A stretch of DNA of 48,196 nucleotides from Seison nebaliae. Taxonomy: Eukaryota. The notes beneath the pieces are model-generated. The model was not told the origin of the DNA, did not search any database, and was given only the letters and a program-made list of their open reading frames with translations. This document shows positions 4,801-45,402 of the stretch, one piece after another (the first letter of the stretch is position 1; every line of letters begins with the position of its first letter). The DNA lies in contig JALJEE010001140.1 in assembly GCA_023231475.1 (NCBI GenBank), forward strand, positions 1 to 48,196. Direction: 5' to 3'. Position numbers and translations under genes: made by a program.

Positions 4801-7800
4801 CTCCTTCTCTTTTTTCATGGTCGTCTTTAATTCGTCGTTGATGGAAGAATGTGATGGAATAATAGACAAATCTTTCCCAATTGAATGGTCATAACAGAAG
4901 TTCTTATAATATATCGTCTGATAATTGTGGAACCAGCGATATGAGAGATTCATATCTAATGAGATTTTTGAGAAAATGTTTAAAAAATATAAATTATCAT
5001 TTCCAGTGGGATAGCGTCGTAGATTGTCGATGGAAATGAATTGTAAATTTGTAATTTTCGAAATTAAAAGTGAGAGATGTTGATCTTGATAGAATTCACT
5101 TAATATTTCTTTGATCATCTCATGCAATTGTTCTCGAATTGAATTCATATTTCTCAAACTTTCATTATTCCAATTTTTCTGATGATTTTTCTTTGGGAAT
5201 TGTCTCATTGCGAATGATTTCCTTCTGAAACAATTCTTCAAAATTGAATTTCGCGTAATTCCTTCAAAAATGATATTTCCTGTCTCATTTTCAATGAGTT
5301 GACATTCCCCATACCAAATAGATTCGAATGATAAATGAAGATCGATAATACATCGACAATTGTATTTGGTGAGAAATCGAAATTGAATATGATCTAGAGA
5401 AATGAATCGACAAATGATTTGTGTGACGATATGATCGAATGGAACGGAAGTGAATGAATGAAAATCATATGTCATTGGAATGTTCAATCGAAATAATTCC
5501 ATAAATAAATTATTCGTAGCCATTTGTCGTTTGAGAAGGAAGAGAATGAAAATTAAATGAAATGGATTAGCCACTGCAATCTCATTAATTTCCATCGATT
5601 GAAAATAAAAATTCTTTTTAAATGAAACATTTTTGTCAATTCTCTTCTTTAATTTTCTTTCATTCCATTCCATTCGCCAACGATCAAATAATCTGTCGTT
5701 TTTCATCTTTAAATCTTTTCTTTTTATTCTCTTTCTTCTTTTATCATCAATTGATATAAAACGATAATTATTTTGTGATTTTTTCAAATTCTCTTCAAAT
5801 ATCGATCGATTTCCTCTTTTCATTTCCTTCAAACAATTCTTAAGTTCTTTCCAAGAAGTTGACGATTCTATTAACTTCTTCTCCATTTCTCCATCTGCTA
5901 AAATTGATGTGGAATTGGTTGTTGATAACATGAAAGTTTCGAGGAATTTGAATAAAGTACGAATTGGAAATGGTTCTTTTTCATTAATCAATATCTGCTC
6001 GTCAAAAAGAATATCATCAAAATTCCATTGTTGTAAAATAGACAATGGATGAGAATTATCAGATTCATAAGGTGATTCATTCAATTTATTAATAATCTGA
6101 AAGAAAATTTTATTTGTAAAGTGAAAATTTTGAAAATTTTGAACGGTCAAAAATTGTCGTTCGTTTATGAATTTGTCTCTGAAGAATTGTCTCATTCGAC
6201 CAAAATAAGAAATGGGGGTAATGTCACCAATTAATGGAATTCCTTTAAAAATAAAAATTTATTAGAAATTATATAGAATAAACACCTGTCAATCGTTTCA
6301 ACATGATTCCATAATCATAAAATAAAATAATCGGTTTGGTGAGTTGCAAGAAAACGGTTTGATTTCCGTTCGATTTCCATCCGTCATTCATCGTCAGCCA
6401 ACTAAGACTTTAAAATTTGAATATGTTGAAAAAGAAGAAAATATTTTGAAATTAACTATTTTGATGTTGAAAGAGAATTTGAAGTGAATTCTTTCCCTGA
6501 TTGAATTGAATTGACAAATTCTTCCAATTTCTCTCCAGATAATTCATTCCAAATGGAATTTTTATAAACATCTGGAACATTCTCCATTTTCGTTGTAACG
6601 TCGTGTCGAATTCGAAGGATAGCTCTCTCACCAAACGAATTGAACGATCTCATCAATGATTCGATGGAAAGATGAGAATTTGATGATTCTGTGAAATGAT
6701 AAAATTATGAAAAATCGTATGATGGAAATATGAACTTTCTTGAATATTTTTCAAATGAATTCGCTCTTGAGCATTTAATGAAATGAGAAAACTGGATGGG
6801 AATGCTGATTGGAATGAACATGAGAAATCATCAAAATTAAATTTAAATGGAACCACAGAGTCGTGGAATTATCAAGCCAAAAGGTGATTTTTCCATTATC
6901 TCGATAACATTTTCCAATGTATAGGTTTGTGGTTGATAAGTTTGAGAGGATGAATTAGATTTAATCATGTTGTTAAATGGAAGAAGAGAATGGTTTATTT
7001 CCGTTAATTCTCCCATTAAATGAGAGAGAAGATTTTCTAGGAACAAAAATTTCATCGGCAAATCCGAATAAGTTTGTTGATTTCTGAAAGATAAATTTGA
7101 ATGATGAAGAGAATGAGAAGAAAAGGAACTTGAAATTCTTTTCATTGAATTCATCCATCAAATGTAATTGGAACAATATTTGTTGATTATTTCCTCGTCT
7201 AAATTTGGAAGAAGAAATTTTGATGATTATTGAGAAAATAAAGAAGGAAAAAAAATGAACGATAATAATTGATTGAAATATTGAGAATGAAATGAATGAA
7301 TTGGTCCGAATTGGATATTGACACCTCTCTCGTAATCATAGAATGATAAAGAGAAAGGAAATCCAGATAATTTAAGGAAATTCTCTTCCTTACATCGTTC
7401 GACTCGCCAATTCTTATGAGAGACGTTTGATAAGATCATTTTCCAATCAATGTGAATTGGTTGAAATGAATTCAATGAGAATAAATGGTCAGCGAGGAGA
7501 TTGATGGAGATGGTGGCGATATCATCATCTGATTTAATGATGGAATTCATGAATGATTTTGAGGGAATGACTGATGAGGATGATGATATTCGATGATATG
7601 AAGAATGATATTTATATCTCCGATATTGATCATCTGTTAAATGATTAATTTTCATCGATTTGAATTGAAGAGAATCCATTCGATCAATTTCCATTTTCCG
7701 TTTTTTATCATCATTATCATCATTCTCATTATCTGACCGTTCAAATGATTCGAGACATGACTCTTCTAATTTGATTTTTAATTTCATCTCTTCTGACATG

Positions 7801-8252
7801 TGGAAATCTTTCAATAATTTCGGAGGTGTTTCTTTCTGATGTTCAACAGAAATAGATGAAACACTTCCTGAAGTTGATGTTGATATTGAAATATTATTAT
7901 TATTATTATTGTTGTTGTTGTTGTTATTATGAGAATTATCGTGAGAAGAATTATGTTGAGAATTATTCGTCATATTCACACCTGATAATGATGGTTGTGG
8001 AGGAATTGATGTTGTTGTTATTGACATTTTATTGATGATGGTTTTTGGACGTAGATCCTTCATCGGTTTTACCATTTGATTACATGGTTGTGGTACGACG
8101 GTTAGATTGTAATCGCTACCGATTGGAATCATCGGTACCATTTGTCGATGACGATACACAGCTGGATGGAGAGGTGGTATTGGAGGATGGAATTTGTTGG
8201 GTGGCAAAGGATTAAATTTCATGGGGACAAAAGAAAATCCTTCCATGGTCAT
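1819..8252 (-). CDS. MED1: Divergent Mediator subunit 1-like protein, 7 exons, about 2045 aa
   Basis: Exons 8252-7261, 7198-7130, 7083-6854, 6804-6736, 6688-6457, 6407-6286, 6242-1819 join in frame (6138 nt) and link six ORF-track fragments. Three motifs resemble the MED1 N-terminal domain in the right order: PFGLIIPR, VFLQLTKPII...LKRLTGIPL (spans the exon 6/7 junction) and EIAVANPFHLIFILFLLKRQMATNNL. A long S/N/Q/P-rich disordered C-terminus follows. Confidence 0.6.
3881..4180 (-). repeat. Coding minisatellite (24/33-nt units) encoding (NEIEENSK/Q)n within the MED1-like gene
   Basis: + strand unit TTTTCTTCAATTTCATTTTTGGAA repeated about 10 times; three copies carry an extra TTTTTGGAA; all unit lengths are multiples of 3. 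Confidence 0.95.
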
Positions 8253-8497
8253 TAATTCTTTTTTTTTTGGAAATATCTCTCGATTTCAATTTAATTGTTC
8301 ATCGATTCGATGAAGAAGTTAAATGCGATAGAAAAATTAGGAAAACATTAATTAATAAAAATAATAAATTTGAGATAAGCTCAAAATAAAAAAAGAATCT
8401 TCCAATTCATTTAATGATGGAAAATGGTTTGAAGGTGAAAAAAGTGCATAAATGAAAACCGAATAAATGAAAGCGAATTGAAACAATTTCATTATTT

Positions 8498-8511
8498 GTT
8501 GTCATGGAAAC
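8498..8511. promoter_or_regulatory. Candidate RFX X-box
   Basis: GTTGTC-AT-GGAAAC, 18 nt upstream of the MAP10-like ATG; fits the imperfect X-box palindrome GTTNYY-AT-RGNAAC. Confidence 0.5.
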
Positions 8512-8529
8512 CAATTCGGTTTAACTGGA

Positions 8530-10767
8530 ATGGCTAATTTATCCAAAGCGCTCTTTACTTTCGACGTGTTCGTTCGATATATTCAATTGGAACAACGACA
8601 ACGTATCCGTCGTCCCATTGTCATTTATAAGTTCCTCGATTATACACCACTTCGCATCAACTACTTGTCAGAAAGTAATGGTGAAACGGCCATATCAACT
8701 GATACAATCGTCTCACCCAATCAACCGTCCAATCAAGTTATTTATTTCAATGAAGGGAAATCTTCTGCTTTTTATGATGATTTTAATTGCATCACTAAAC
8801 GATCGGAAGTACTTCCATTATATATTCTCGTTAGTGAATCATATGATGAAGCATCATTAGTCACTTACGCAACCACCAACATTAACATCTCAACCTTGTT
8901 CGATAGCATCCGCCAACGTGTCTATTTGACAAATAGCACGTCAAGTCCCGTTGTCGCGGTCTATCCTCCATCGGTCATTGTTCTCTATAATTTAATGGGG
9001 AAAGAAGTTGGTACGATATCCATGTCTCTAAGACTCGTTTATTTCGGAATGGAGTTCCTTAACGAAGTTCAATGGTTGAATGATAATGATGGTAGCGGTG
9101 ACGGTATTGCGATTAAATCATCCATACGATCATCAAGATATCCAATTGATAATGGTCATTCTCATCGAATGTCACGAAGAGATTCCGTATATTTATCACG
9201 AAATGATAATCCATATCATTATGATTCGACCTCCCATCAAATGAACAAATCTTTAATGATTGACGCTTCAACTCAGATATCTGATTGTTCTAAAAATAAA
9301 CATGGTCGTTTTGATGAGCCACAACCATCTTCCCAATACCATGATAATGGTAATTGGATGCGTAATAAAATTAGACGATATGATGATCAATTTTTAGAAA
9401 GTAATGAAATTCCAGTAGATAATCTTCGGAAAACATCGAATATTTATCAACCACGACCAATCATTATCGGGAATGAAATACATCAAAATCACAACAACAA
9501 TAATCAAACGGTTAGTTTCTTGTCTGAAAAGCGAAGTAAACCAGCAGATTCATTCGATGACGGTCATACGAAAAAGAGCAAGTTACCTAAACGGGAAACG
9601 GAGTCCATTTTAGCTGAATTTGCCAAACTTCGATTAGGAAGTGCTACGAACATTCGTCGTAATGGTCGATCGATTGAGCGGAAGAATCGCAGAATGATAA
9701 ATAATTCGCGAGATAACGAATTTCATGGACGTGCAATAAGAACTGGTTTTCGCAATACATCTAGGCCATTGACAGCCAAACAATTACGAGAAGTTACTGA
9801 TCGACTAAGTATGACTCATGACGAAAGACGACGGCACGAAAAACATCATTCTTCCCATTCGAAATGTTACGAGGAAACGATGGTCACTAAAGATTGTTGT
9901 TCTAACGATATTTTGTATACGATTAAATTGCAGAAATGGCGGCAAAAAATTATTAAGAAATTAAACGCAACGGACAATATACACGAACTTCTCGGCTTAT
10001 CATATCGAACAAATCGAACACATATTCTTCGCTTATTTTTGCGCGAACCAATTTTAGCTCTACGATATTTTAATATTACTCCTCCTTTCGTTTTACCTCC
10101 AAATAATTTAAAACGATCAAAATCATTCCATACAATTATATCGGGAAAAGAGACGATCGAACCGGAGAAACCACCACCTCGGAAATACTTTTCACCTACT
10201 CCTTTAGATAAACAACAAGGTGTTAATAGTATTCAACCATTTGTTGAACGTATGAACTCACCACCAAAACCGATGCAACGCAGTCCGACACGTCTGGAAA
10301 TAACTGACATTAGTCCATTTGCTTCCAAACGATTGGTATCGGATATGACATCATCATCGCCGATGAAGAAATCACTACGATCAACCACCGAAGAAAGTGA
10401 TACGAGTTATGAAGATTATTCCGAATCAACGACACTCAGCAAAACGGTACAAACGTCGATTGATTTAAATTTGGAGAGTCAGAGACTTTACAACAAGAAA
10501 CCATCAGAGGCCACTTTACGATATATGGAGAAGAGTCTTGGTAATACCATTTCTTATAATGGACGGTCGAAAAAGTTAGTTAAACGTCGAAGTACTCAAC
10601 GGAATATCGTAAGTTCTGATGATAGTTCAGATTGGGATTCGGATTGGGATAACGATAAAGAAATGAATTCGGGAGTAGCAACTCCTAAAGGTAAATCATC
10701 ATCGTCTGAAAGTTCATCACAGCTCTTCGATCCGACCAGTTCTATGTCGACCGAATATGATTTATAA
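8530..10767 (+). CDS. MAP10: Microtubule-associated protein 10-like, single exon, 745 aa
   Basis: N-terminal motifs LFTFDVFVRYI, YKFLDYTPL, FNEGKSSAF, PLYILV and LYNLMGKEVGTISMSLRLVYFG parallel the MAP10 N-terminal domain (LFSLELLV, FRLLDFPTL, FGRGKSCLF, LHNRVGERTGDIALAYRLTDLG); the rest is low complexity. Confidence 0.65.
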   Translation: MANLSKALFTFDVFVRYIQLEQRQRIRRPIVIYKFLDYTPLRINYLSESNGETAISTDTIVSPNQPSNQVIYFNEGKSSAFYDDFNCITKRSEVLPLYILVSESYDEASLVTYATTNINISTLFDSIRQRVYLTNSTSSPVVAVYPPSVIVLYNLMGKEVGTISMSLRLVYFGMEFLNEVQWLNDNDGSGDGIAIKSSIRSSRYPIDNGHSHRMSRRDSVYLSRNDNPYHYDSTSHQMNKSLMIDASTQISDCSKNKHGRFDEPQPSSQYHDNGNWMRNKIRRYDDQFLESNEIPVDNLRKTSNIYQPRPIIIGNEIHQNHNNNNQTVSFLSEKRSKPADSFDDGHTKKSKLPKRETESILAEFAKLRLGSATNIRRNGRSIERKNRRMINNSRDNEFHGRAIRTGFRNTSRPLTAKQLREVTDRLSMTHDERRRHEKHHSSHSKCYEETMVTKDCCSNDILYTIKLQKWRQKIIKKLNATDNIHELLGLSYRTNRTHILRLFLREPILALRYFNITPPFVLPPNNLKRSKSFHTIISGKETIEPEKPPPRKYFSPTPLDKQQGVNSIQPFVERMNSPPKPMQRSPTRLEITDISPFASKRLVSDMTSSSPMKKSLRSTTEESDTSYEDYSESTTLSKTVQTSIDLNLESQRLYNKKPSEATLRYMEKSLGNTISYNGRSKKLVKRRSTQRNIVSSDDSSDWDSDWDNDKEMNSGVATPKGKSSSSESSSQLFDPTSSMSTEYDL

Positions 10768-11649: not shown

Positions 11650-14472
11650 ATGATGACGGAGAGTGATGAATTATTGAAGAAAGAATTAATTGTTGATGAT
11701 CATCATCTCCAATTGCCGGAGGAAGTAGCTTCTACAATTAATGAAATTCTTCAGTCAGATGATGAATTTGATTCGGATACTTTCGATTTGATCTCTCATG
11801 TCAATCGTCTCTTTCCCACTCAACAATCACTCTCTAATATTGACGAGAGGATCGAACAGATTGAGAATAACATCGAACATTTAAACGATGAGATTCGCGA
11901 ATCGATTCGAGTGCAAAACGACATCAGTCAACAAGGAGAGAAATCATTAGAATTAGCGCGACGTTCTGTCGATACGTTGGCAGATCATGTGGAAGAGATA
12001 TCGAAGAAAGCGAAAACATCTGGCGATGTTGTTCGTGATTTGACGAAAGGAATTAAACAACTCGATTTAGCCAAACAGAATATCACTCAATCGATAACGA
12101 TTCTTAATCAACTTCATATTCTCGTTGATGGAGCGGAGAATTTGAGAGTTTTATGTCGCGAGAAAAAATATGATGAAGCAGCTCCATTAATTCAAGGTGT
12201 CGTTCAAGTGATGAAAGAATTCCAAACATTCCGTCAAACCATCTCTTCCATCGACGAATTATGTTTGACGGTGGAGAATATTCGAACGGATTTAAGTGAA
12301 CAAATTATTGAGGAATTCGAACGATTGACATTAATGCATATGTCGAAGAATAATATTTCGAACACACAAGGAAGTGAAAGATTTCAGTTGTTGAAGAATG
12401 CGGCTAGAATTGCTGATTGTCTTGATGATAATGTTAAATTGAGAATTATCACCACATTCATTAAACATCGATTGGAAGAATATTCGATATTATTCGCTGA
12501 TAATCAAGAATGTGCATGGCTTGATTCGATGGAAAAGAGATATAGTTGGATGAAAAAAAATTTGAATGATTTCGATGAGAGTTGTATCTCACAAATCTTC
12601 CCACCTCATTGGGATATGAGTGAGTGTGTGGCCGTACAATTTTGTAATGAGACTCGTGAACAATTCGAAAGATTATTGAAAGAAAGAGCAACAGAAATCT
12701 CCATCGATTCATTAGTGAGTTGTGTAAAAAAGACGAATCATTTCGAACAATTACTCAATAGTCGATTTAATGGAACATCAATTCTCTTTCAAAATTATTG
12801 TACCACTGTTAATCGATCAATTGACGATATTGGTGAAAATAGTTTCAATCAAATCATCTCATCTGTCTTTCATTCATTCTCTTATATCTTCATCGAATTC
12901 CAACAAAATAAATTGAAAATTCTTCTCGACAAACAATTAAAAGAATTGAATGAATTAGAACTAATCAAAAAAGATGAACAACAACAACAACAACAACAAC
13001 AACAGACACAGCAGATGCAACAAAATGTTGAGGATGAATCAAATTATGGATTTAATATCGGTTCATCGTCATCATCATCGACGGATTTGAAAGATCATAA
13101 ATTGAATGGCACAATTATCACCGATCAAGAGGATAAGAGAAAAAAGAAGAAAGCGGATGATAATATTGACATCATTATGGATTATAGTGTGGAATTATTT
13201 CTTCAATTTAAAGATTGTATTTTAGAAGCGATGGTATTCGATAGTGAGAAATTACTTATCGATCTTTCATCCATTTTCCGATTCTTTTTAGAAGATTTCT
13301 CTTGTCGCATTCTATTGGCATCATTACCAGGATGTAAATCAAATTGGAATGAAGCGATGTCATCCACCGATTTAACTCGAATAAACAATTCTTTCCGAAT
13401 GGACATGACAACATTGAAACCGGAGAAGATGAAAGAATCAGCTTATCAGGCAATGGATTTCGCCTCTACTTTCTTCCAGAACATCATCTCCAATACTGCA
13501 GCTGCTACTGAATCGTTATTTGTGTCAGCGAAAGAAAGACAGAAATTATTGAAAGATGATATTCAACAAATCTGTCGAGTTATTTGTACAGCTGATTATT
13601 GTATTGAAACGACACAACAATTAGAATTGAAAATGAAGAGTAAAATCAATGAACGTTTACATTCCGAGATTTCCTTCGCCAAAGAAGATGATGCTTTCAT
13701 TTTTGTTATACAACAAGCTCATCTAATTCTCGTTGATGAACTAATCACAATGTGTGAGATGAATCTATTGAAAATGAGTCAAATGTTATGGAGTGGAAGG
13801 AGTGGTAATGGGAATAATCAGATGAAAATGCCAAATCAAACGAACAATAACGAAATGGTTTTAGATCAAAGTGCTTATGTCATTTCTATTGAAAAATGTG
13901 TGAGTGAATTCATTCCGTTAGTTCGAGAATCATTATCTGCCTCACGCAAATTCTTCACACAATTTTGTATTCGATTCATCGATTCCTTCCTCTCCAAATA
14001 CTTATTCCATTTATATAATTGTCGTCAAGTATCGACGGAAGGCGCTGAACAATTATTATTAGACTCTCAATCAATTCGTAGTCTTCTCGTATCGTTACCA
14101 ACAATCAAGTCACCATGGCAACGGAAACCACCCATCAGCTATTTGAACGTTCTAAATAAGAAGATGTCGAAAGTGGAGATCATCATCAAATGTGTCATGT
14201 GGCCGACGGATAATGTCACCGTATTCATCGATAATTATATTCGTCTCGTTCAATTGGGAACGACATCGATCGCTGCCAATTTAAATAAGACTTCCAAACA
14301 TAAACAAATGACAACCTTCGCCGACGAAGATACTTTCAATGTGACTAATTTCCAGAAAGTCATCGATATGAAAAGCGTCAAGAAGAATCAAGCATCTCAA
14401 ATGATGGACGAATTTTGCAAGAAAGCCAAACAACATCTTAAAGCAACTATTCCAAATATTCAAAATTTATGA
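11650..14472 (+). CDS. VPS53: Vacuolar protein sorting 53 (GARP/EARP subunit), single exon, 940 aa
   Basis: FDLISHVNRLFPTQQSLSNID, IKQLDLAKQNITQSITILNQLHILV, AWLDSMEKRYSWMKK, FPPHWDMSE, TADYCIETTQQLE and GAEQLLLD match VPS53; internal poly-Q insertion. Confidence 0.95.
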   Translation: MMTESDELLKKELIVDDHHLQLPEEVASTINEILQSDDEFDSDTFDLISHVNRLFPTQQSLSNIDERIEQIENNIEHLNDEIRESIRVQNDISQQGEKSLELARRSVDTLADHVEEISKKAKTSGDVVRDLTKGIKQLDLAKQNITQSITILNQLHILVDGAENLRVLCREKKYDEAAPLIQGVVQVMKEFQTFRQTISSIDELCLTVENIRTDLSEQIIEEFERLTLMHMSKNNISNTQGSERFQLLKNAARIADCLDDNVKLRIITTFIKHRLEEYSILFADNQECAWLDSMEKRYSWMKKNLNDFDESCISQIFPPHWDMSECVAVQFCNETREQFERLLKERATEISIDSLVSCVKKTNHFEQLLNSRFNGTSILFQNYCTTVNRSIDDIGENSFNQIISSVFHSFSYIFIEFQQNKLKILLDKQLKELNELELIKKDEQQQQQQQQQTQQMQQNVEDESNYGFNIGSSSSSSTDLKDHKLNGTIITDQEDKRKKKKADDNIDIIMDYSVELFLQFKDCILEAMVFDSEKLLIDLSSIFRFFLEDFSCRILLASLPGCKSNWNEAMSSTDLTRINNSFRMDMTTLKPEKMKESAYQAMDFASTFFQNIISNTAAATESLFVSAKERQKLLKDDIQQICRVICTADYCIETTQQLELKMKSKINERLHSEISFAKEDDAFIFVIQQAHLILVDELITMCEMNLLKMSQMLWSGRSGNGNNQMKMPNQTNNNEMVLDQSAYVISIEKCVSEFIPLVRESLSASRKFFTQFCIRFIDSFLSKYLFHLYNCRQVSTEGAEQLLLDSQSIRSLLVSLPTIKSPWQRKPPISYLNVLNKKMSKVEIIIKCVMWPTDNVTVFIDNYIRLVQLGTTSIAANLNKTSKHKQMTTFADEDTFNVTNFQKVIDMKSVKKNQASQMMDEFCKKAKQHLKATIPNIQNL

Positions 14473-15252: not shown

Positions 15253-17418
15253 ATGAGACAACCCAGGAAAGTGAAATATATCATCATTCTCTTCTCAACA
15301 ATTATACTCTACCTAATTTACTCATTATCTAGGCGCGTTTATCTATCTGACAAATATCATCATAATTTCGATGACGACGATAAATGTATTATTAATGATG
15401 ATATTCATGAGTTGTGGTCGACTGAAGCGAAGAAACATTTGAATTTAAGTGGGAAACAATTTGTTGATGAGAAAGATCGTTGTGAGCGATTAGATATTAT
15501 CGGACATCCAGGTCGTTTACTTATTCCACAAGATGGAAAAGATATTCTCAATCCAATTTTCTATTTCAATGAAACTCGATTAATGATTTTACATCATGTC
15601 GCTTTCCTCAAAATGCCGAGAAGCACAAATTTTAGTAAACCTTTTAAATGTCGAATTATTTCGTTCGAACGAGTCACCGACTTCAAAATAAAACGAGGCG
15701 AACATCTTTATTCATTTCCTTTATCTGATGATTTATCTCCAATATCCAACATGAAACGAATCGTTGATCGATATCCATTTCTTCTCATTCCACATGAATA
15801 TTTCATAATAGAATGTGTAAATTTCGCTAGACGAAATCCGATTTTCTACCAAGAAGTTTATTATAATTTTAATTCCGAAACAATTTTCCGAATGTACAAA
15901 GAGAAAGAGAAGAGAAATAAAGACGATTTGAACTTCTTAATCATCGGCATCGATTCCGTCTCATCAACACAATTTCGAAGAATGTTACCGAAAACGTTCG
16001 ATCGTCTCACGAAGAAAATGGGAGCGATTTGGATGAAGAATTCTTTCGTTGTTGGTGAGAATACTCGACCGAATCTTTATGCGCTACTTGCTGGATTGAT
16101 GTCGAATGAAATGCTCTATTATGATGACAATAATCATCGTGTGGTGAATGAGATGGCAGATGCTCATTTATTTGAGAAAGAAGAATATACTGATCCCTTA
16201 CCAACGTTATGGCGATTATTACCCAAACGTTTTGTGACTTATTTTCAAGAAGATTACACGAGAATTGGAATGTTTAAATTTGCGAAAAAAGGTTTCCACT
16301 CTCCTCCCGTCGACATATTCCTCACTCCATATTATGTGATGATTGAAAACGACAGAACACCAGTTAACATATGTAATCAATCGAAAGAATTCTATTGGAC
16401 ATTATTGAGTTTCTTAAAGAAAATGATATTGATGGAGAAATCATTTTTCGCTCTCAATTATTTCGATATGGTCACACACGATTGTATCGATGACGTGGTG
16501 TTGTTGGAGGAATCGTTAAGTTTTATTTTCGATTATTACGAAGAAAATTTAAAGAATAATACCGTTCTTATATTCTTCGGTGATCATGGCTCAAGGTTCT
16601 TTTAACAATCTTTTTATATTCTCATTTTATCTCACATTTCCAGAATTGGAAGTTATTACGATACTGAACGAGGATTGAAGGAATCGAGAAAATCAATGAT
16701 GTTCCTCAAATTGCCACAATCATATATGAAAGATCGAAAGAATGAAATGGAAAATTTGAAATTTAATTCAAATCAATTAATCACAATGTTCGATGTACAT
16801 CATACTCTTGTCTATCTCATCCATCAGTTATGGGAGAAAGGCAGTGTGAATAATTTCTATATGGAAATGATGTATCAATTCTATTTCATGAACATACAAA
16901 AAGATCTTAAGAAGATTTTAGCGGAAAGCAAATTAAGTTGGAGATCGTTAAACAAACGAGGAAGGAATTTGTTGAGTGAGAAGATTCCACAACGATCCTG
17001 TATTGCCGCCACTATTTCCATTATGTTCTGTCCATGTGAACGAGAAATGAACGTTTTTGAATTGAATGGAAAACAATTAAATAAATTATATGAGACGATT
17101 GTTGGACAATTAGATCATATATTGTCAAATCTGAAAAATTCGAGTGTTCGATGTTTATCGACAGGAAAAGTGAAAATGAACGAAACTTGGTTAGGCGATC
17201 GAGTAAAATTTGATGGGAATACACAATATTTAATAATAGGAATCAAATTCCGTTTTGGTGAGATAGGCAAATTCCTCACATTCATTTTCATGAAATATTC
17301 ACCAACTGAAATATCAACTAAAATCATGACAATGACTCGTCTCGATCGATATTCGAAGACGAGTTCATGTCTATCATCTTTCGAGGAACGATGGGAAGCA
17401 TATTGCATTTGTCGCTAA
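15253..17418 (+). CDS. DUF229 family protein (alkaline phosphatase/sulfatase-like fold), type II membrane, 2 exons, about 705 aa
   Basis: Exons 15253-16595 and 16644-17418 (48-nt intron GTTCTT..CAG). N-terminal TM, IIGIDSVSSTQFRRMLPKT, VGENTRPNL, GF..PPVD, FFGDHGSR|IG, N.NQLITMFDVHHTL, R.C..A.I...FCPC, terminal YCICR. Confidence 0.88.
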
Positions 17419-21475: not shown

Positions 21476-22375
21476 ATGGCGTTAAACTTATCAATTCTAA
21501 AAGAACCTCGATGTTTCATCAAATTAATTGAAATCGTTTAATTTTATTCTAAAATTTCTCATAATCAATTTATCCATTCAAAAAACCAACTCAAGTTATT
21601 AGCAATTATTGCATTTTCGACGATTAGTGACGGTGGATTTGCATTTATTTATTCGGGTGTTCCTAATGGTCAAATTGTTGAGGAGAGACGACAATACTCT
21701 CCCGAATTCTCTTATCCATTCGAGTTCATTTTCTTCACATTATCTCCGAAATAATTCTCTTCTAGTTTTATGAAAGCAAATGCATCACACTTCCTACACA
21801 AAGACAAGACATTCGCATGTACAGCCGAATTCTTCGTTTTAGTTGGCGTCATCGCTTTCCTGACAGCTATCGGAAATATGGTGGTTTATTTAGTCTTTGA
21901 GAAATGTTACCGAGAGAAACATATTTGGTCATTACTAGTTTGTAATTATTTATTCTTATATTTTAATCGTTTAATTTCTTCCACAAATATTCAGGATACA
22001 TTTTTCTCGTTTCTCATCGCCATTTTATGGTTAGCCGGTAGTTGTGCATGGGCTCGTGCCGTCGTTCTAATAAAATCTTATTTCAAACTCGAATCAGTGC
22101 AATTGGGCAATCCTCAGATCGTTCATTCACCAACATTCACAAATATAACGACATCGGTTGTTGTCGGATTTATCAATTTCGCCGTTTGGCTCGGAAATAT
22201 TTGGTTACTGTATAAACATAATCCAATAATTGCCGACTTATTGGGACGGAATAAAACCAATCAACAATCCTCATCTACCAACAACAATAACAACAACGAA
22301 AACAATGAACCGAACCAAAATGGAATAGTCAATTCACCGCCATACACAAATATTCCACCATCTGCCCTCTCGTGA
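21476..22375 (+). CDS. Synaptophysin/synaptoporin-like MARVEL protein, 4 exons, about 246 aa
   Basis: Exons 21476-21535, 21596-21723, 21766-21937, 21995-22375. Motifs LKEPRCFIKLIE, FSYPF, AEFFVLVGV, LDTFFSFLIAILWLAGSCAWARA and SVVVGFINFAVWLGNIWLLYK are typical of synaptophysins. Confidence 0.88.
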
Positions 22376-22780: not shown

Positions 22781-22800
22781 AAATGTCAAGAAATAAGATT

Positions 22801-24281
22801 TCAATTATATTCGCCCGAATCATAAAACAGACCGAGTCGATTACCATATTTCCGGAATTTTACACGAACATCTTCTTGCATTAAATTGAAGCACATGCAG
22901 ATCATGGCTAGACCAACCACCAAATAGAGAGTAACGAATACTATGACATGATATGATTTCTCGATTTGATCCTTCTTTTCGTTGTTCAAGTCGACGGAGT
23001 TCGTTTTATTTAGGGCTGATTCGATAATTCCGTTCGTTAATGAAATCGATTGTCCCGGTACCAGATCGCCCAGTCCAATCGTACTGAGAGTGATAAAGCA
23101 GAAATAAGCGCCATCAATTGGTTCCCATTTCTCGTATCTGGAAAAGAGTAGACCTCCACCAATAATATAGATTGTTAGGACGAATAATGTGACACTTATT
23201 GGGACGGTAATTGCTCGATAATCGACACGTAACATTCTATCCATTCGTTCTCTCGTAATCTTCTGTTTCTTTGATGTTGCCTCATCTAGGAATTCACCAC
23301 CTAGAGGCATTGTGATCACTTTTAATGGATCGTCAACAATATAAGCATTCAATAATTGATTCTTCCTAATCAGATTACAATAAGCACAACAAATTCTCGC
23401 GTATACAAATCGAAAGATATCGGCCATTGTCGAACCGAGATTAGCAAGACATAACAACATGATTGGGATTCCAAAAACTGCATATGCTATTGTCACTAAT
23501 TTCCCATTAATCGTACGACAAGTCAATTGTCCATAACCTGTTCAAACAAAAAAATTTCCATCAAAACGATTTTTTATAATTTTTTAAAAAAATTAAATTG
23601 AACAAATTGATATTTAGGAGAAATGATAAAGACGAATAACTAACCAATAGTAGTTATTACAGTGATGCTATAGAGAATTGAATTGGCGAAATTGAAATCA
23701 TTATTATCATACTTATTTTCATTGTAGTCGAAAAGATATTGAAATTGATAATCCGTCAACAAATCCGTTAAATTTCTGTTGGATTTCTGAGAGAAGACAT
23801 TGTGAAGTAGAAGTTGTTGAAGTTGGAGAATGAAGTGATTACGACGTTTATCTCTCTCTTCCGTTTGATTTGCGATGAGTCGTTCTTTACAGAAGTTGCT
23901 CGTTATTGTCATTTCTAATTCGGCCACTTCCACACTATCTTCATTCTTTTCATTAATCTCATATAATTTATGTAATTCATCGCAATCTGTTTGCTTTTCT
24001 AATTCACGGAAACAGAATCCACCAATAATCGAATAAGCGAAAATAACGAGACATAATCCGATGCGGGAAAAAAGGAACGATACGAAACTTCGACAACATC
24101 GACGAAATTGTCGTTTATGGGACACAGTCTTCGTTCTAGTTCGAACTTCATTAGTCGTCTGTTTGACATTCTTTTCAATTTTCTTCTTCTTCTTCGACTG
24201 AATTGGAGTAGATGATTTTTTAGGCTTTTTATTCTTCGACTCGTGATCAGAACCGCTAAGACGGAATGTAATATTTGGCAT
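22801..24281 (-). CDS. Two-pore-domain (K2P/TWiK family) potassium channel, 2 exons, about 457 aa
   Basis: Exons 24281-23645 and 23537-22801; splicing (GTTAGT..CAG, 107 nt) restores pore 1 TTIG|YG; pore 2 YFCFITLSTIGLGD; four TM segments. Confidence 0.93.
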
Positions 24282-24641: not shown

Positions 24642-25420
24642 TCACTGACTGATCAGAGATGGAAGGTTAAACTCGTCATATCCGTTCGATTTCAGATTGT
24701 TGCACAGCTGCAAAAGAATAAGAGAATATTCACTCATAACATTTCCATTAGAAAACAAGAAAGTTAAGGAATTGGGAAAAGAGGAAAAGGGAAATAAATT
24801 TCCACTACAATGAATTAAGCAGAGTAATATTTTCAAACTAACACTATGCGCCCATCGGTAGAGATGTACATATTTCGTGGAATCGTTGAAGAAGTTGGAT
24901 CTCTGTTGAAATATAATAAGTTTCTTTTCCTTTGCCGCTTCTCCCCACGCACTAACGAGATGTTTATACAAATATATGAAGAGTAGAAGATCCAATGTGG
25001 TAATTGACTGATAGCAAAGATAAGTATTCGTTGCCAATTCAACGTTTAACCACTTGACACACAAGGAAGAGTAAAATGAAATGAGAAAATAATTTTATGA
25101 ACTTCCAATAATAATTGAATATTTTCATGCTCCTTCAACTCTTTCAACAACATCTCTCTCACCACATTCTTCATTTCATTATATTTTCGATTTCTATCGT
25201 CTCCTTCTTTCACATGTTGCGATGAAGAGGTTTGTTGCACTTGTCCTAACTCATCCAACAGATCGATCAAATTCATAAAACCGATAACTTTCCGTTCTTC
25301 TACTACTATCTCAGGAATTGAGAAACCAATTGATGTTCTCGATTGATAATTGAGAGGAGTTTGAACATTCGAATAATTCTTCTGAACGAAATGTTCGATA
25401 TGTGTCGACAATTGAGACAT
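24642..25420 (-). CDS. GST C-terminal-like protein resembling EEF1E1/AIMP3 (p18), 4 exons, about 179 aa
   Basis: Exons 25420-25103, 25052-24957, 24902-24843, 24707-24642. WLNVELATNTYLCYQSITTLDLLLFIYL...KYVHLYRW resembles LNSYLEDKVYLTGYNFTLADILLY...KYLNVSRW of EEF1E1, and the size is similar. Introns 2 and 3 are in frame, so they are less certain. Confidence 0.55.
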
Positions 25421-26754: not shown

Positions 26755-27575
26755 ATGACGAGGAAGCGAGGGGCGCTCATTGTGTTCGAAGGTGTAGACG
26801 GGTGTGGGAAGTCGACACAAATCAAAATGGTCCAGAAACGTTTGGGGGAAATGAATATTGGAACGAGACTTTTCACTTTTCCAGGTTACTAATTAGTGTG
26901 ACGAGAAAGGCGAGGAGGAATCACTAAAGAATTCGGAATTGAATTTCATATGTAGATCGATCGACATTGATCGGAAAGTTGTGTAATGATTATCTGAAGG
27001 GACAGTTGGAAGAGAAGATGTCCGATGAATTTGTCCATATGATTTTCAGTTTAAATCGACGAGAGAAAAAAGAGGAAATGATGAGACTATTGGAGAATGG
27101 CGAAACGATTCTTTGTGATCGATACGTCTATTCTGGATTAGTTTATTCGGCCGCTAAATCATCCGATCTCTCTGTCGACTGGTTAAGTGCCTGTGATGGA
27201 ACGTTACCGGAACCGGATTTGATCGTTTATTTGAAGATCAGTGTTGATGATTTAAAAGAGAATAATCGATTTAAGCAAGAAGAGATTGTCGAAACGGAAC
27301 AATTCCAACGGAAAGTTTATTTGAATTATGAGAAATTATTTCAGAAAAACAATTCATCAAAACTTTTAGTTATATCATCTTTTCTTCTTTCTCATTGACG
27401 TAATTTTCATTCATAAAAAACAAAATAACAGACAATAGACGGAAGAGACTCTCCTTCAAAAATTACTGATTTGATCGTGAAAGATGTGTACTCTCGTTTT
27501 CCGGTAATCGAAGAATCATCCATCTCCTTACTCACTTTAAATTGGCATCAATTGACGTCATCCCGCACCAAATGA
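26755..27575 (+). CDS. DTYMK: Thymidylate kinase, 3 exons, about 228 aa
   Basis: Exons 26755-26884, 26956-27368, 27432-27575. RGALIVFEGVDGCGKSTQ P-loop, FP|DRST.IG, CDRYVYSG, LPEPDL, L|TIDG. Confidence 0.95.
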
Positions 27576-28615: not shown

Positions 28616-29626
28616 ATGATTTTCTATTTGGGAATAGGAAGACGTTCATACGACTCTTTTCATCAATATCTCACAATTGATTTCCATCAGTATCATCGTC
28701 TTTGTCTTCGTCGTCGATATTTTCATTCGAAGAACAATCGGATAAAATATTTTCATTATTTTCTTGTGCTTCTTCTCATTATCGTATTGAGCGGAATGAC
28801 ATTGGTGAGAATGACCACCACATTCAAACAATCAACTTTAATGAATTCTTCATCGAATTCTTCATCACAATCAATTATCGAACGATCACGTCGCGCCATA
28901 CAACAAAAGAAGAATAATACAAAAAAATTAAATTATTTTGTTAATCAATTCATTGATGAAATTTATTTAAATAACATTTCATTCATTCAATCCGCTTCAT
29001 CTCATATCGACATCAACAACTTCCTCCTGAAATATATTTCGCTGCGAACACAATTTATTGACTCGAAATATTTCCTACGGAAACCATATCTCTCCGTCAA
29101 TCGTGGTGAGCGATTCGTCTTAAAGTATCACAGTTTTTTTTCTCTTCAGTCAAATGATTTCCATTTCATAATTGTTTTAGAGAAACCGACGAAACGTTTC
29201 ACACGAATTCCAGTTACTATAACTCGCACGGACAATTCGGAAGTTCGAGGATTTTTTTTCGGAATACATAACGAAAATAAATTAATCTGTTTCGATTTGA
29301 ACGGTCATCTCTCTATACAAGTTCTTTTCATTTCCTCATGTTCATTCAGTTAAAGATTTCTTGTAAAATTTCGAAGAATTACGAACTAATCAAACGAACT
29401 CCCTTCATCGTGTTGTGCATGTGGAATGAAGAGAGACGGTTGGTAAAGAACATCGAACATTATCAATTCTCGTCGTTGTTTGATAAAGATCTTAAATTCT
29501 CTTTCATTCCCTCGAAATATTATTTGACATATCCCTCAATTCCATTGTACTCACTCCGTCAAAATTACACAAGAATTCATCAAATCGTCCAAGATGAATT
29601 GAAATATTTCTTCAATATATCATCAC

Positions 29627-29711
<85 letters not shown>

Positions 29712-30180
29712 TTCATCATCGTCATCATCATCTTCTTCTTCATCAACGTCATCATTATCATTATTGTCTTCATCAGTATTCAATCATCGACAAAGGAGGA
29801 ATCATTTGAAACGGAGGAATCATTCGAATGAAACAATTAATAATGAAAAATTAATCGGTCAACAGGAAAAATGGAAAAGAAATTCTCTTTATGAATTTAT
29901 TTGGGAATATGAGAAGAATTATGATTCGATTGTCCAATATTACGAGGAAAGAAAAAGGAAACGACCGAGAAGTTACAAATTATTCATTTGTCAAATTCCT
30001 CCAGACTTTCATCACATACTCAATCGACAACAAGTGATGGATCGTAAGAAGTTTTGTAAGAATATTGAAAATGTTGATAGAAAGCAATTATCAAAAGAAT
30101 CTCATCGAAAGAGGAGGAGGAGAAGGAGAATACTTTTTCAAACTCTCATCACTAATTATTGGCGATATTTTCATTTTTAA
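28616..30180 (+). CDS. Uncharacterised putative type II membrane protein with poly-Ser tract, 2 exons
   Basis: Two long ORFs join in phase 0 at acceptor CAG 29349, using donor GTT at 29321 (29-nt intron) or 29243 (107-nt intron). Basic N-terminus, hydrophobic YFLVLLLIIVLSGMTLV, RSRR motif. No family recognised. Confidence 0.55.
29620..29760 (+). repeat. (TCA)n trinucleotide repeat encoding poly-Ser
   Basis: About 27 uninterrupted TCA units (29629-29709) plus degenerate flanks. Confidence 0.95.
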
Positions 30181-32276: not shown

Positions 32277-33028
32277 GATCGAATGAATGGAGAGATAATC
32301 GTTCGTTAAATGAGAGAAATTCCTTTCCACGAAATAAATCGAATGTTCGATATGATATTCCTTTCCAGTACAGCTGAAGAATAAGCTATTGATCTGCCAA
32401 GAATAGAACTGTCCGAAATGAATTAGTAGATGAAATGGAGTTGTTCACTATTCGAAACGATGACTCGAACAGTTCACTATAGAAAGAGACGATTTCAAAA
32501 TGAACAATTTGATGATTAGAAAAAAAATATCTAATAAACTAAAATAGAAATAGAAATTCGAAAGATGGAAGGAATCGTTTCCTTTTATTTATGTTCGAAA
32601 ATGAAATTATTCCAAAATCCATTTCTCCTTTCCAATTTTTCAATTTTTTCAATTTTTTCAATTTTGTTTCGTATTCTCTTTTTTCTATTTTCCAATCATC
32701 AAAACTAAATTTCTTTTGAAATCATCAACTTTTTCAATCAATTCCACTTTTACCAAAAAACAAAAAATTTTTATGAGAAACACATAAAATTTTTAAGAGA
32801 TACTTAAAGGAATTTTTGAGCAAAAAAAAGAAAATTTTTAAGATAAAATTAAAAGAACTGTCTATTTTTCTTTAAAAGAAAATTGGTAAGAAGTTTTAAT
32901 TTTTAAAATTTTGAAGATTCAACTAATTAAAATTAAGTTAATGAATGTTTTTATTAAAGAAACTTGTTTAATGGAATCTCGATAAATAATTTTGTGTTTA
33001 ACAATAATCGATAGAAGTCTACATGAAA

Positions 33029-35395: not shown

Positions 35396-35648
35396 CGTGT
35401 CCGTGTTTTCTTGTTGCGCTTCACTTCAATTGACGAGCTAACCATTAAAATTATGTGAATTATTCCTACTTATTCAACAATCCTTTCTCATTCACCATTT
35501 TTTTCTTTCATTTTCAAAATCTCTCATTCTCATCTCCCTCTATTTATTTTAAGCAACTTTACTTTCTGGAAAGTTACTCCATTCCTCACACCCGATATTT
35601 GGACAAAGAGAAATCGACAAGAATTCTCCACGATTATTCAGTCGAACG

Positions 35649-37071
<1,423 letters not shown>

Positions 37072-37191: not shown

Positions 37192-39775
37192 TTAAACGGC
37201 AATCTCATCATTTATTTTCCTCATCGAATTATCTATTCTTAAATCATTTTCCGTTTCTTCAGGAATCGGATCAATCGTTAACATATTCGATGAATTTTTC
37301 AAATTCTTTAATAATAATTCATCCCTTTTCGCCAAATCACTTTCCTCCAACATATCATCGTCTTTCTCTGATCTCTTCTCTCCCAATATCGATCGATAAT
37401 GTTCTCTCCATTTTTCAAAAATTAATCTAAGAAAAATTTTTGTGGAAATTTTTTAGAAACAAAAAATTTATCGAACTTTATTCTCTTTTTCACATTTAAA
37501 AGATCTTTCACATAAATATTCTTCTTTTCATGGTTCGATTGATCTTTCGTTTCCACCGTCGAATTATCAGCTATTGATGATCGCTATTGAAATGGATGAA
37601 ATATGAATGTAAATAAAAAAAAAACTTTTGATTTAACACTATTTGTTTTCGTTACAGTTCTTGTTCCACTTTTCAAAGCGTTTGATTTGTTTGATGGTTT
37701 CGCTTGGAATAATTGTCGTGATATATTTGAAGTTAATTGATATCGTTTTGTGGTTAAGAAACTTTTTGGAAGATTGTTAATTTGTGATATGGTATTTTGA
37801 AAAGAAGAAAGATCAGGAATTTGATCGAAATATGACGATGTTTCCATCACTTCACTTCTATTTCGACTATGTTCGACATTGGCATAAGAAAGAAGAAAAG
37901 TTGAACGATCATTTCCATCTTCAAACACCAAACGAATATATCTTGGATTGGTATAAATAATTTTGAGTCGATCACTTAAACGTATTTCGAATTGTTTCGA
38001 GAAATCATTTAAGGAGATAGAATGGAATTGTGTCATCGCTCCATTATGATCACATTGCATATAACCATTCTCTAAGAAAATATATTTGGAATGTCGATTC
38101 TCATTATTATAAATTACACCGGTACCATTTGGTGCCATGAAAGCTAATATCTTCTTTTTTATCCGATATTTCTTCCGGATCGATCGTCCCAATCCATCGA
38201 AAACATTATTCGAATTTCGACTACTTGTTAAACTTTTCCTCAAATTCATATTACTTCCTCGAGAGAAGGCGGTCGTTCTAATGATGTCCCATCGATCAGT
38301 TGTGCTGAGCGAATCGAAGATCAGAGTAGTAAATATTCCTGGTATGGATTGATTGAACGGTTCACGTATCATCAACAGATGATGATTTAATAACTCTTCA
38401 GCAACTTCTTCTGCTGATGTTAACATGTGATCGAAAGATCCATGTTCTGGAACAATTAATTTATAACTTAAAAAAAATCATTCGATAAATTTTTTTAAAA
38501 AAAAATTTGAAATAAAACAATGCCATTTGAGTGTGATCGATTAATTCGATGCGGAATAACGATTCTGTCCGTTCATTACTCACATTCTTCCCGCAACTCA
38601 CAAATCTTATCGGTTGTACAATGTTATTTCCGTTAGGGATCTCTTTGCGTAGGATGCTCATAGCGAATAACGATCGTCCCGTTCTCACTATTTTCCCAAT
38701 GGAAATTATTTTCAAAATTTTATTTTTCTCAAAATTCCTAACTTTTATTTTGGGTCTCTAATCGATTCCTTCCCTGTCGATAATAAAAGAATTGACAACG
38801 CAATTCGTACAATTTCTCTTTTTCTTCTATCAACATTTTCTTCCAATTGTCGATGTGTTGTCGGAGGAGATGTAGAGTAGATAAAACTTTTCTTTCATTC
38901 TCATCGATTTGTTCCGATACTTTCGTCCAACCATTTATCTCACTTATCGGATCAGATAATTGGAATGATAATATCGATGAGTTTGGAGGATTCGCTTGTT
39001 TATTTGTCGTATCTTCATTCATCTTTCTATCTATCGCTGATGGCGAATGTAAATTCTTCACTGAATTATTCGGATTAAGACTTTTCGTCGAATTCGATAA
39101 ACGACGTTCGTTCATCGTCTTATTTCCATCTGATGGTTTCGTTATTATTATATTATTCTTCTGCTGCTGTTGTTGTTGTTGCTGTTGTTGTTGTGGTATT
39201 GTACTACCTCGAAATTTCGGTGTGCCAGTTATCCATTTGAGTTTTTTGAGTTTGAGATAAACTTCCTGGAAAATACGATTACTTTCCGAATGTTTGATGG
39301 AATGCCAAGAATTCTCAAGAAAATCATTCAATTCTTTTGGTAGACGTATTGAGAATTCTTCTTCCATCTCCTCGTAATATGTTAATTGGAGAGAGAATTC
39401 TTCAAAAATCGATTCAGCTAATCGACGTAGAATACAATGAGGTAATCGAAATGATTCTTCGATTAATGTGGCCGATTTAACCGATCGTCTCGGTGTATAA
39501 CACACTCTCAAATTATTATCATTCGTCGACTGATGATTTTGCTTGCTTTCATCCACTATCCGATAAATTAATGGGGAATGTAAGGAAAGCAATGGTATCA
39601 ACGGTTTATACACGGCCAATTGTTGTCCATTCATCATTTCGCTCAAATCATCCGCTAACAACGAAATGGCGTCACCAGGTTCTCGATAGAGTTCACTGTC
39701 ACTGACGACCAATTTTCGTCGTTCATGCAACGGATAAATATCGTGGAAATGTAAAGAATCATGAAAGAAACTCAT
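37192..39775 (-). CDS. C3orf20/FAM194-like protein, 5 exons, about 794 aa
   Basis: Exons 39775-38743, 38687-38519, 38466-37626, 37583-37477, 37426-37192 join four ORF-track fragments in frame (2385 nt). LAFMAPNGTGVIYN...GYMQCDHNG...EIRLSDRLKI and KLIFEKWREHYR recall the FAM194/C3orf20 beta-rich domain. The gene is well supported; the family call is tentative. Confidence 0.55.
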
Positions 39776-43350: not shown

Positions 43351-44064
43351 ATGCCAGACGTTAGTCCTTCAACATAAACATTCTAATTAGAAGTTAAAAT
43401 AAATGTCTTTAGAAAAAGAAGAAGGCTCAACGATCAGGAAGCAGTGTCTTCTCCATGTTCGATCAACATCAAGTGCAAGAATTCAAAGAAGCATTCAATT
43501 TGATGGATCAAGATCGTGACGGAATTTTAAGTGTAGATGATTTACGAGAAGTGTATGCATCTCTCGGTTTATTTTAATTCTTAATTTTTTAACTTATTCC
43601 AATTCCATCCAATTTTCAGGAGTAACACCAAAAGACGAACAATTGAAAGCGATGGTTGGCGAGGCATCAGGGCCCATCAACTTTACTCTTCTCCTCCAAA
43701 TGTTTGGTGAACGACTTGGTGGCACTGATCCAGAAGATACGATAGTCAACGCTTTCAAACTCTTCGATTCTCAAGGAAAAGGAAATTTAACGAAAGATTT
43801 GTTAGTTTTCTTCATTTTCATTTTTCATCCTACAAATTAATTCATTTCATAATAATAGTCTCAGAGAATGTTTGACCACAAACGGTCCACCAGACGATCG
43901 ATTAGACGACCGACTTGTTATTATTTTTAATATTAATTAATTTCTTACTTTTATTTATTATCCAGTTCAATCAAATGTTGGAGATAGCACATCCAGATCG
44001 TCAAGGACAAATCGACTATGAAGCATTCGCTCGTGTCATTAAGCGTGGAGAGCAAGAAGAATAA
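43351..44064 (+). CDS. Myosin regulatory light chain, 5 exons, about 166 aa
   Basis: Exons 43351-43359, 43413-43566, 43620-43800, 43859-43916, 43966-44064. [73 protein letters not shown]. Confidence 0.95.
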
Positions 44065-44445
44065 ATTGTAAAAAATATAGTGACAATTCTAAAATTATTG
44101 CTTTTCTTCATTCATTTTATATCTTCCGTACTTCGTCTACGAATCTCGGCTCCATGTATCCGTCATGTCTTGTTGTCCAATTTTGTCCACACCGTTTTCT
44201 AAATTAAAAGAAAATATTTATACCACCCAACATTAAAAAAAGTTCATCATGAATCATAAATCGAATTCCTCTTAATAAAATAAACACAATTCGATAAACG
44301 CTTTTATATCATCTCTACTATTCTTACAATTTTCATACTCAACTAATTTAGCGACCCGAATCATCCAAAAATTGGACTGTCATCTTATTACTACGAAATA
44401 ACACCAATTTTTGGTATTTTTCGAAATTAATAAAATTCTTGAAAT

Positions 44446-45402
44446 TTAACTAACAAATTTACTTTCTACTCGTTCGACTTTCTCCATCAATTTTCCCAAT
44501 ATTTCTTTGTTTTTCTTCTGTAAAATGTTTGACATTTCATTTTCTTCCTCCATCTTTAATTGAAAATATTCAATTTCATTTTGGAAGAGTGATAATTGAT
44601 TCTTAATCCGTTCCGTCAAATTATTCGCCATTTCCATATTGTTTATTTCATTTTCGATTTCCTGACAATATTGCACTCTACCAATATTCCTGTTCATTTC
44701 AGAGAGTTGTCTTTCCAACGTCTTCACAATTCCTGTGAATTATTCTCAACTTTTTCTTAAATCGATTTTTAACTTGAACGTTTCTTTCTTTTTCTGATTT
44801 TTCTTCTTTTTCTATCTCCAAATTCCGTTTCAAATTACTAATGAATACGTCCAATTCTAATATTTCCCTCTCAAGTATCTATCATGATTATCACAATTAT
44901 TATTCATTTTGTAACTAAATTAACTTCTGGTGTTTTTCCATTATCCAGTTTCGCTCTCAATTCGTCACATCTTTTTACACTTTCTTTCTAGACTAAGATG
45001 AAATGCACATTGGAAATAAGATGAAATGAAACAGATTTCTTTTCCAAATCAGCAAAATGTCCCACATCAAATTTTAAGTTTATTAATTCTACAAAATAGA
45101 TTAATCTCCAAATATGAGTGAATAAGGAAAGAAACTTTCTTGAAATTCGATCAATGTCGAACAGTTATTCAAGAATAGTTTACTGAAAGAATAGAGAATC
45201 AAATCGAATAAAGGAAATGATATTAGAAGAATAACTTGAGATGAAACAATTTCAATTGATCCCAATTCTCTTTATTATCAACTAAAATATTTGTCAGTTC
45301 CTCCGGCACACCTTTCTCGAATCTCAAATAATTCAAATATTTTCCAATTTGATTCGCATCGATATCCACCTGGTTCTTCGTTCTATATTTTATTTTCATC
45401 AT
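44446..45402 (-). CDS. Uncharacterised coiled-coil protein, at least 6 small exons; 3' part uncertain
   Basis: Exons 45402-45236, 45182-45136, 45088-45033, 44987-44925 and 44878-~44774 join in frame through four 45-53 nt GTT..AG introns, then an E/K/N/L-rich heptad ORF to 44446. The last junction is ambiguous. Confidence 0.6.

Follow-up and report, generated by a model that had tools for sequence, protein, structure and literature searches.

The window analyzed here is a whole contig of 48,196 nt (JALJEE010001140.1; GC content 31.7%) from the seisonid rotifer Seison nebaliae, a very small marine animal whose genome assembly and RNA-seq data have been described (PMC8351084). Sixteen genes were modelled in it; 11 separate ones contain introns and five are intronless, and the products include two NCBI Seison nebaliae proteins, SNEBB_009329 (p38) and the orphan SNEBB_009330. 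The feature of interest is the 5' splice site, or donor, of the introns in these genes. The intron set comprises 34 modelled introns, i.e., the 33 listed in an initial annotation of the DNA and a new one at 6144 on the minus strand (GTTCAA, 48 nt), all modelled with GT donors only.

Introns on the contig start with GTT almost without exception. At intron position +3, T occurs 33 times and G once, with no A and no C. The initial annotation had reported 32 GTT donors among 33, a single GTG and no GTA, and this count stands: all 34 coordinates (29321 and 29243 being alternatives) read GT on the strand concerned, 33 as GTT and one as GTG. The sole non-GTT donor, at 6285 on the minus strand, is CAG/GTGTTT, which carries the full exon-side consensus. 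Base composition is not the explanation for GTT donors, since GT is followed by T in just 40% of cases window-wide and in 17/40 within introns. The comparison with background intron T content, which the initial annotation had named beforehand as critical, gives p = 2e-10 for +3T (33/34, where T makes up 0.466 of the intron interior) and thereby rules out neutral AT bias as the cause. The lack of +3A (0/34) departs from intron A content at p 1e-6, and p = 2e-5 is still obtained with 6/34 donors not GTT.

GTTCAT and GTTAGT are the joint-commonest donor hexamers (5/34 each), and G is found at +5 in 9/34 (6% background, p 2e-4), counts that agree with those first reported. Position +4 is A in 14 donors, C in 11, T in 9 and G in none; +6 is T in 24/34 (p 6e-3), and T is elevated from +6 to +9. 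On the exon side, -1G (7/34) is at the level of the coding background (p 0.83), a point overlooked in the initial annotation, and there is no -1G/-2A signal. The GTT rule is a real property of the contig, and probably lineage-wide.

Intron boundaries and reader bias

Removal of the introns leaves the frame open in all cases, and the spliced junctions of p38 and SNEBB_009330 equal those of the NCBI models (P0121 and P0122), which are predictions, not transcripts. In these two models, 8/8 donors are the GTT sites of the initial annotation, including the four of the orphan gene. The p38 introns, on the plus strand, lie at 36087..36186 (GTTCAT..CAG, 100 nt), 36217..36263 (GTTAAT..AAG, 47 nt), 36427..36472 (GTTTTC..TAG, 46 nt) and 36545..36601 (GTTAGA..TAG, 57 nt); those of SNEBB_009330, on the minus strand, lie at 38688..38742 (GTTAGG..TAG, 55 nt), 38467..38518 (GTTTTA..AAG, 52 nt), 37584..37625 (GTTTTT..TAG, 42 nt) and 37427..37476 (GTTCGA..TAG, 50 nt). 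Moreover, homolog register is gap-free across five junctions: the DUF229 gene intron (16596..16643, plus; AG/GTTCTT..CAG, 48 nt; Pfam PF02995 register 343/346), intron 3 of the MARVEL/synaptophysin-like gene (21938..21994, plus; GTTTGT..CAG, 57 nt; Pfam PF01284 register 74/76), the intron in the TIG/GYG filter of the K2P channel (23538..23644, minus; GTTAGT..CAG, 107 nt; sole frame-compatible donor; Pfam PF07885 register 39/41), intron 1 of thymidylate kinase, DTYMK (26885..26955, plus; CAG/GTTACT..TAG, 71 nt; PDB register offset +3 on both sides), and intron 2 of the myosin regulatory light chain gene, MRLC (43567..43619, plus; GTTTAT..CAG, 53 nt; PDB register 60/63). Donors fixed by NCBI models or by gap-free homolog register are thus GTT in 13/13 cases.

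The other introns were delimited by enumeration of all frame-compatible GT-AG pairs, which left few nearby non-GTT rivals, and by a donor-blind gene model with uniform emission at +3 to +6, in which GC donors were also allowed and a posterior >=0.9 counted as confident. At this threshold, the model returned 21 donors, 20 GTT and the one GTG, and GTT holds 28.2 of the 35.4 total posterior. In the gene for an orphan protein of ~2,000 amino acids, on the minus strand, introns 1 to 7 are 7199..7260 (GTTCAT..TAG, 62 nt, needed for frame; posterior 0.93), 7084..7129 (GTTCCT..CAG, 46 nt; 1.0), 6805..6853 (GTTCCA..CAG, 49 nt), 6689..6735 (GTTCAT..CAG, 47 nt; 1.0), 6402..6456 (GTTAAT, 55 nt, or a 49-nt intron with another acceptor; sole frame-compatible donor; 1.0), 6243..6285 (the GTG donor, CAG/GTGTTT..AAG, 43 nt; 1.0) and the newly predicted 6097..6144 (GTTCAA..CAG, 48 nt, in frame without a stop; 0.99). 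The GTT donor at 6853 is in frame, as first proposed, but an in-frame rival at 6856 (GTGGTT) has the higher blind posterior (0.8 vs 0.2).

On the plus strand, introns 1 and 2 of the MARVEL gene are 21536..21595 (GTTTAA..AAG; 0.28) and 21724..21765 (GTTCAT..TAG, 42 nt; 1.0), DTYMK intron 2 is 27369..27431 (GTTATA..CAG, 63 nt; 0.91), and introns 1, 3 and 4 of MRLC are 43360..43412 (GTTAGT..TAG, 53 nt; donor 0.9), 43801..43858 (GTTAGT..TAG, 58 nt; 1.0) and 43917..43965 (GTTATT..CAG, 49 nt; 1.0). The orphan gene at 28.8-30.2 kb, on the same strand, has an intron at 29321..29376 (GTTCTT, 0.57) or one with its donor at 29243 (GTTCGA, 0.42), the acceptor being unsure. On the minus strand, a small Arc1p-N-like gene with weak Pfam matches has introns at 25053..25102 (GTTCAT..AAG, 50 nt; 0.19, the model having ended the gene early), 24903..24956 (GTTAGT..CAG, 54 nt; sole donor for that acceptor, without support in the blind model) and 24708..24842 (GTTAGT..CAG, 135 nt; acceptor picked by frame). 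An orphan gene near 45 kb, also on the minus strand, has introns at 45183..45235 (GTTATT..CAG, 53 nt; 0.8, the rival also GTT), 45089..45135 (GTTTCT..TAG, 47 nt; sole frame-compatible donor; 0.99), 45032..44988 in the reading direction (GTTTCA..TAG, 45 nt; 0.99) and 44879..44924 (GTTAAT..TAG, 46 nt; 0.79, the rival also GTT). A further candidate in this gene, outside the 34, lies at 44711..44779 on the minus strand; its donors 44779, 44773 and 44750, found with the blind model (posterior >0.04) and by hand, are all GTT. By eye, there is also a possible intron in a 5' untranslated region at 46856-46908 (minus), upstream of a 117-amino-acid membrane-protein open reading frame (46454-46807), with GTTATA or GTTAAT as candidate donors.

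The initial annotation had counted 15/15 GTT donors in conserved genes, of which nine are fixed independently and five more have a posterior >=0.9; 21536 is the weak member, as a rival at 21513, also GTT, is preferred (0.68). Its caveat that donor choice in orphan genes might be biased to GTT is not borne out, for the NCBI model of SNEBB_009330 and the donor-blind model both agree with GTT. Reader bias as the source of GTT is ruled out by the donor-blind model, the NCBI models, the homolog registers and the frame enumeration. An artefact in the wider sense, i.e., wrongly placed boundaries, neutral AT bias or a mobile GTT...AG introner family of recent origin, appears very improbable. It is true that introns and NCBI models alike are predictions, and that non-GTT donors receive 20% of the posterior mass in the blind model, two known errors included. 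This model gave wrong results for p38 introns 1-2 and for DTYMK intron 1, and did not succeed with the Arc1p-N-like gene near 25 kb; mean pairwise intron similarity is also slightly above that in block-shuffles (17.1 vs 16.0). However, the five register-fixed donors were set without gene models, and a donor-blind aligner finds GTA/GTG in other genomes (9/10). A mobile intron family was rejected in particular because the best intron pair is within the shuffle range (reached by 13/100 shuffles), terminal inverted repeats are absent and 25/34 introns have no flanking direct repeat.

In contigs of sequencing run X2, which are DNA-like, no intron-skipping joint was seen at the modelled introns. GMAP writes gaps as deletions when its built-in splice-site score is low. 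In the species' transcript-mapping table (PMC8351084 supplement 2; 19,906 rows searched), 24 exon/intron length patterns gave few matches, with neighbouring lengths or orientation wrong. Parts 1 and 200 of the 400 parts of this supplement hold many transcript gaps of 41-99 nt, lengths as modelled here, and 72/81 distinct gaps of 40-100 nt in them are written as deletions, not introns (hand count). Within these Seison data alone, and given the GMAP rule, such deletion-style gaps would fit atypical splice sites genome-wide, which is a hint only.

Comparison with a monogonont rotifer

For comparison, 32 metagenome loci were available and spliced alignment was made for two, L030 and L032; L030 alone is a genomic locus that has introns and groups with rotifers. 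L030, equal in GC to the Seison contig (0.31), groups with Brachionus at 100/100 (bootstrap not fully converged). Donor-blind spliced alignment gave GTATAG, GTTTTC, GTATAT and GTATGA as its donors, i.e., 3/4 GTA and one GTT, and this 1/4 differs from the 33/34 of Seison (Fisher p 0.002, with a control of n = 4). In L032, an unrelated locus, the same aligner found 0/6 GTT. The rotifer comparison consists of one monogonont locus.

These data bear on the view that +3U is a strong, non-universal preference derived from a wider rotifer (bdelloid/acanthocephalan) drift to GTT, with this contig at its high end and the machinery unchanged. GTT donors are commoner in nematodes and bdelloids than in vertebrates, one of the four control donors is GTT, two Seison donors may be GTG, and a single contig was sampled. 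Against this, 11 separate intron-bearing genes concur, GTA is absent, the excess over intron T is p 2e-10, and the control is mostly GTA at equal GC; such inheritance is therefore quite improbable. Altogether, the results support a shift of donor selection at +3 in Seison that is due neither to AT content nor to reader bias and that differs from the monogonont control. Of the initial claim of altered donor recognition in an animal, the shift at +3 is upheld by the composition and bias checks and by the control; the term "near-universal" rests on one contig.

The control also bears on intron loss. The glutaminyl-tRNA synthetase (GlnRS) gene has four introns in 243 codons in L030 vs none in Seison. 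The intronless Seison genes are MAP10-like (8494-10767), VPS53 (11668-14472), prefoldin (25616-26233), Derlin-like (30384-32279, minus) and GlnRS (33029-35395, minus). Since L030 GlnRS has four introns and five long Seison genes have none, marked intron loss in Seison is likely; on the contig, ~2 introns per gene are left, or ~1.3 per kb of coding sequence (coding lengths being approximate).

Candidate readers of the third intron position

All 34 introns are GT..AG, with lengths of 42-135 nt (median 52.5) and an interior that is 79% AT. Acceptors are YAG in 28 and AAG in 6 (-3 is C 14, T 14, A 6, G 0); the acceptor side is T-rich, and a sharp tract is absent. No branch motif stands out 10-40 nt from the acceptor (CTAAY 2/34 and YTRAY 12/34, raw counts). 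By their GT-AG ends and YAG acceptors, the introns are predicted to be of the major (U2) type; a minor (U12) type was rejected, with RTATCC donors in 0/34. Donors of the NN//GURAG class number 0/34 and those of the AG//GU class 3/34, one of them the sole GTG donor, and 31/34 belong to neither. At 25/34 junctions, donor and acceptor flanks share no base; thus, most junctions lack the usual AG/G proto-splice context. The K2P G/YG intron and the 30-nt p38 exon presumably correspond in position to vertebrate ones, in which case the introns concerned would be old and converted in place.

Taken from the same genes, 1,136 decoy GTs were compared with the true donors for pairing with canonical U1. The area under the curve (AUC) was 0.499, decoy GTA/GTG sites pair better, and 32 canonical-looking sites within genes go unused; canonical U1 pairing therefore cannot be the donor selector. 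In addition, +3A pairs in Watson-Crick fashion with canonical U1, so that 0/34 A is hard to explain with it. At the six remaining U1 positions, true GTT donors do show more matches than decoy GTTs do (2.3 vs 1.4, p 5e-6), and the absence of +3A, the base favoured by canonical U1, together with residual +5G/+6T, points to an A opposite +3 in U1. GTTAGT is the exact complement of ACUAAC.

Our preferred, though tentative, reading is that GTT donors, on the contig and likely genome-wide, most likely arise through such an A. The U1 5' end would be ACUAAC instead of ACUUAC, and the major spliceosome would pair with GUU. With this U1, the core would gain a third pair in donors whose pairing on the exon side and at +4 to +6 is weak; +3A would be disfavoured through an A-A clash, and +3G would be tolerated mainly next to a complete CAG exon end, which is the situation of the sole GTG donor. 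Recognition may occur by intron definition, based on the GUU core, a U-rich body of 42-60 nt and AG. In the window, a search with Rfam for small nuclear RNA (snRNA) genes gave 0 matches, both at gathering and at E<=1.

A number of observations weigh against this reading. The modelled compensatory U1 lifts AUC to just 0.563, only 5/34 donors are GTTAGT, and the +4C enrichment (11/34) is predicted by neither U1 form; most of the discrimination must then come from intron definition over ~50 U-rich bases. Compared with decoy GTTs in genes, +5G is no higher (27% vs 21%, p 0.39), and the T-richness of the introns accounts for part of the extra T at +6/+8. A canonical U1 is retained in the majority of other lineages with unusual donors, although there it is +4 that changed (bioRxiv 10.1101/2022.06.08.495308, PMC10581693). 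The evidence base is one 48-kb contig, DNA-predicted introns and a small control. Besides its preference for 6856 and its non-GTT mass, the donor-blind model suggests an unlisted in-frame intron near 29106-29180, with a donor at 29106 (GTG, 0.61) or 29133 (GTT, 0.25), so that two donors (6853/6856 and ~29106) could be GTG.

Base pairing explains little of donor choice with either U1 (AUC 0.50-0.56), and a protein might be the reader: with canonical snRNAs, a diverged protein of the U1 small nuclear ribonucleoprotein (snRNP), such as U1C, Luc7 or a TIA1/Nam8-like factor, would read GUU and the U-rich intron body directly. The raised T at +6 to +9 would suit it, as would the very long branch of Seison GlnRS in the tree and the highly diverged U1C described for Entamoeba. 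General U-binding, however, would not produce 97% T at a single position next to 26% T at +4 and at +5, and we regard this explanation as unlikely. Alternatively, U1 may be canonical, relaxed or lost, with +3U enforced at the U6/tri-snRNP step, be it by G-U wobble between U6 ACAGA and +3U, by a G-to-A change in U6, or by altered contacts of Prp8, SNRNP27K or METTL16. Pairing between GUU donors and the canonical ACAGA of U6 is possible (bioRxiv 10.1101/2022.06.08.495308), the loss of U1 has a precedent in Cyanidioschyzon, and a -1G/-2A signal is absent from Seison donors; but strong +4 to +6 positions would be expected, and +5G reaches 26% and +4U 9/34, below background. Dependence on U6 is thus rather unlikely, and the depleted +4U means that the METTL16-loss (+4U) signature is absent.

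With an A opposite +3 in U1, Seison may be the first animal with a major spliceosome recoded at the donor, in which GUU replaces GUR genome-wide and both animal donor classes are lost; at present, this broader proposal is possible but doubtful.

Gene content and relation to known donor systems

Several genes of the contig have unusual features. The GlnRS (minus) and p38 (plus) genes are head-to-head, with starts ~250 bp apart (35425-35649), so that a shared promoter is likely; among the 120 matches listed, the closest relative of GlnRS has only ~55% identity. The p38 kinase ends in an unusually long Asp-rich acidic tail (36990-37068), which the NCBI model shows as well. In the Derlin-like gene, the DER1 domain is followed by ~400 Ser/Lys-rich residues in one open frame; the usual length of a Derlin is ~250 amino acids. 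Tandem repeats of ~24-33 nt at 3880-4170, with units rich in Glu, Asn, Ser and Lys, were noted by eye in the gene for the ~2,000-amino-acid protein. The orphan gene at 28787-30180 (plus) has a predicted membrane or secreted product with a poly-Ser run; a resemblance to FGF found no support from Pfam, PDB or Atlas. A homolog search with the large orphan exon gave no match, nor did exact look-up of six intronless open reading frame predictions, whose start sites probably differ. For the K2P gene, two short pieces had no match in PDB and a longer piece matched. Run X2 includes ~3x contigs that are ~80-85% alike in coding parts at 29009-29041, 31665-31892, 33202-33339, 35994-36023 and 38991-39109; these low-depth diverged contigs would represent a second, diverged genotype or a relative within the same run, in which a paralogous myosin light chain gene was also found on a 21.6-kb contig.

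The closest parallel is Entamoeba, the sole published +3U lineage found, in which GUUUGU(U) donors go with a co-evolved, compensatory U1 (AACAAAC) (Roy & Bowser, bioRxiv 10.1101/2022.06.08.495308). Both have near-fixed +3U and GU-AG introns, and both are AT-rich, host-associated lineages with intron loss. The likeness holds at +3 (33/34 T) and ends there: Entamoeba fixes the hexamer (88-90% GUUUGU), whereas Seison, an animal that has retained ~2 introns per gene on the contig, fixes +3 only (GTTTGT 1/34; +4T and +5G 9/34 each), without a strict +4U/+5G. In Saccharomycotina, where U1 and U6 remain canonical, a +4U (GUAUGU) shift is tied to METTL16/SNRNP27K loss (Parker et al. 2023, PMC10581693); there too, one donor position changed lineage-wide, at +4 rather than at +3 as in Seison, where a METTL16-type shift was rejected because +4U is not enriched. 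Human donors are 53.6% NN//GURAG and 45.1% AG//GU (PMC11732430), compared with 0 and 3/34 in Seison; GU-AG ends are common to both, and the Seison GTG donor is of the AG//GU class. Seison introns, predicted to be major-type, are like those of Entamoeba at +3 and lie outside the strict GUUUGU type and both animal donor classes. In the literature searched, in which subscription journals are thinly covered, neither Seison nor any other animal was reported to have predominantly GTT donors. In the species' paper (PMC8351084), the main text does not mention snRNA and refers to splicing once, in an unrelated part of the methods, and supplement 1 has no splice terms.

The 5' splice-site code has been thought near-invariant in animals, with ~99% of human donors in two classes (PMC11732430). 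An animal with 31/34 donors in neither class is a natural experiment on what reads +3: U1, U6 or a protein. It also bears on the co-evolution of snRNAs and introns in a still intron-rich genome, an open question of the Entamoeba preprint. As the assembly and RNA-seq are already described, testing would be cheap. On the practical side, Seison introns would probably be mis-scored by splice-aware tools that were trained on other animals.

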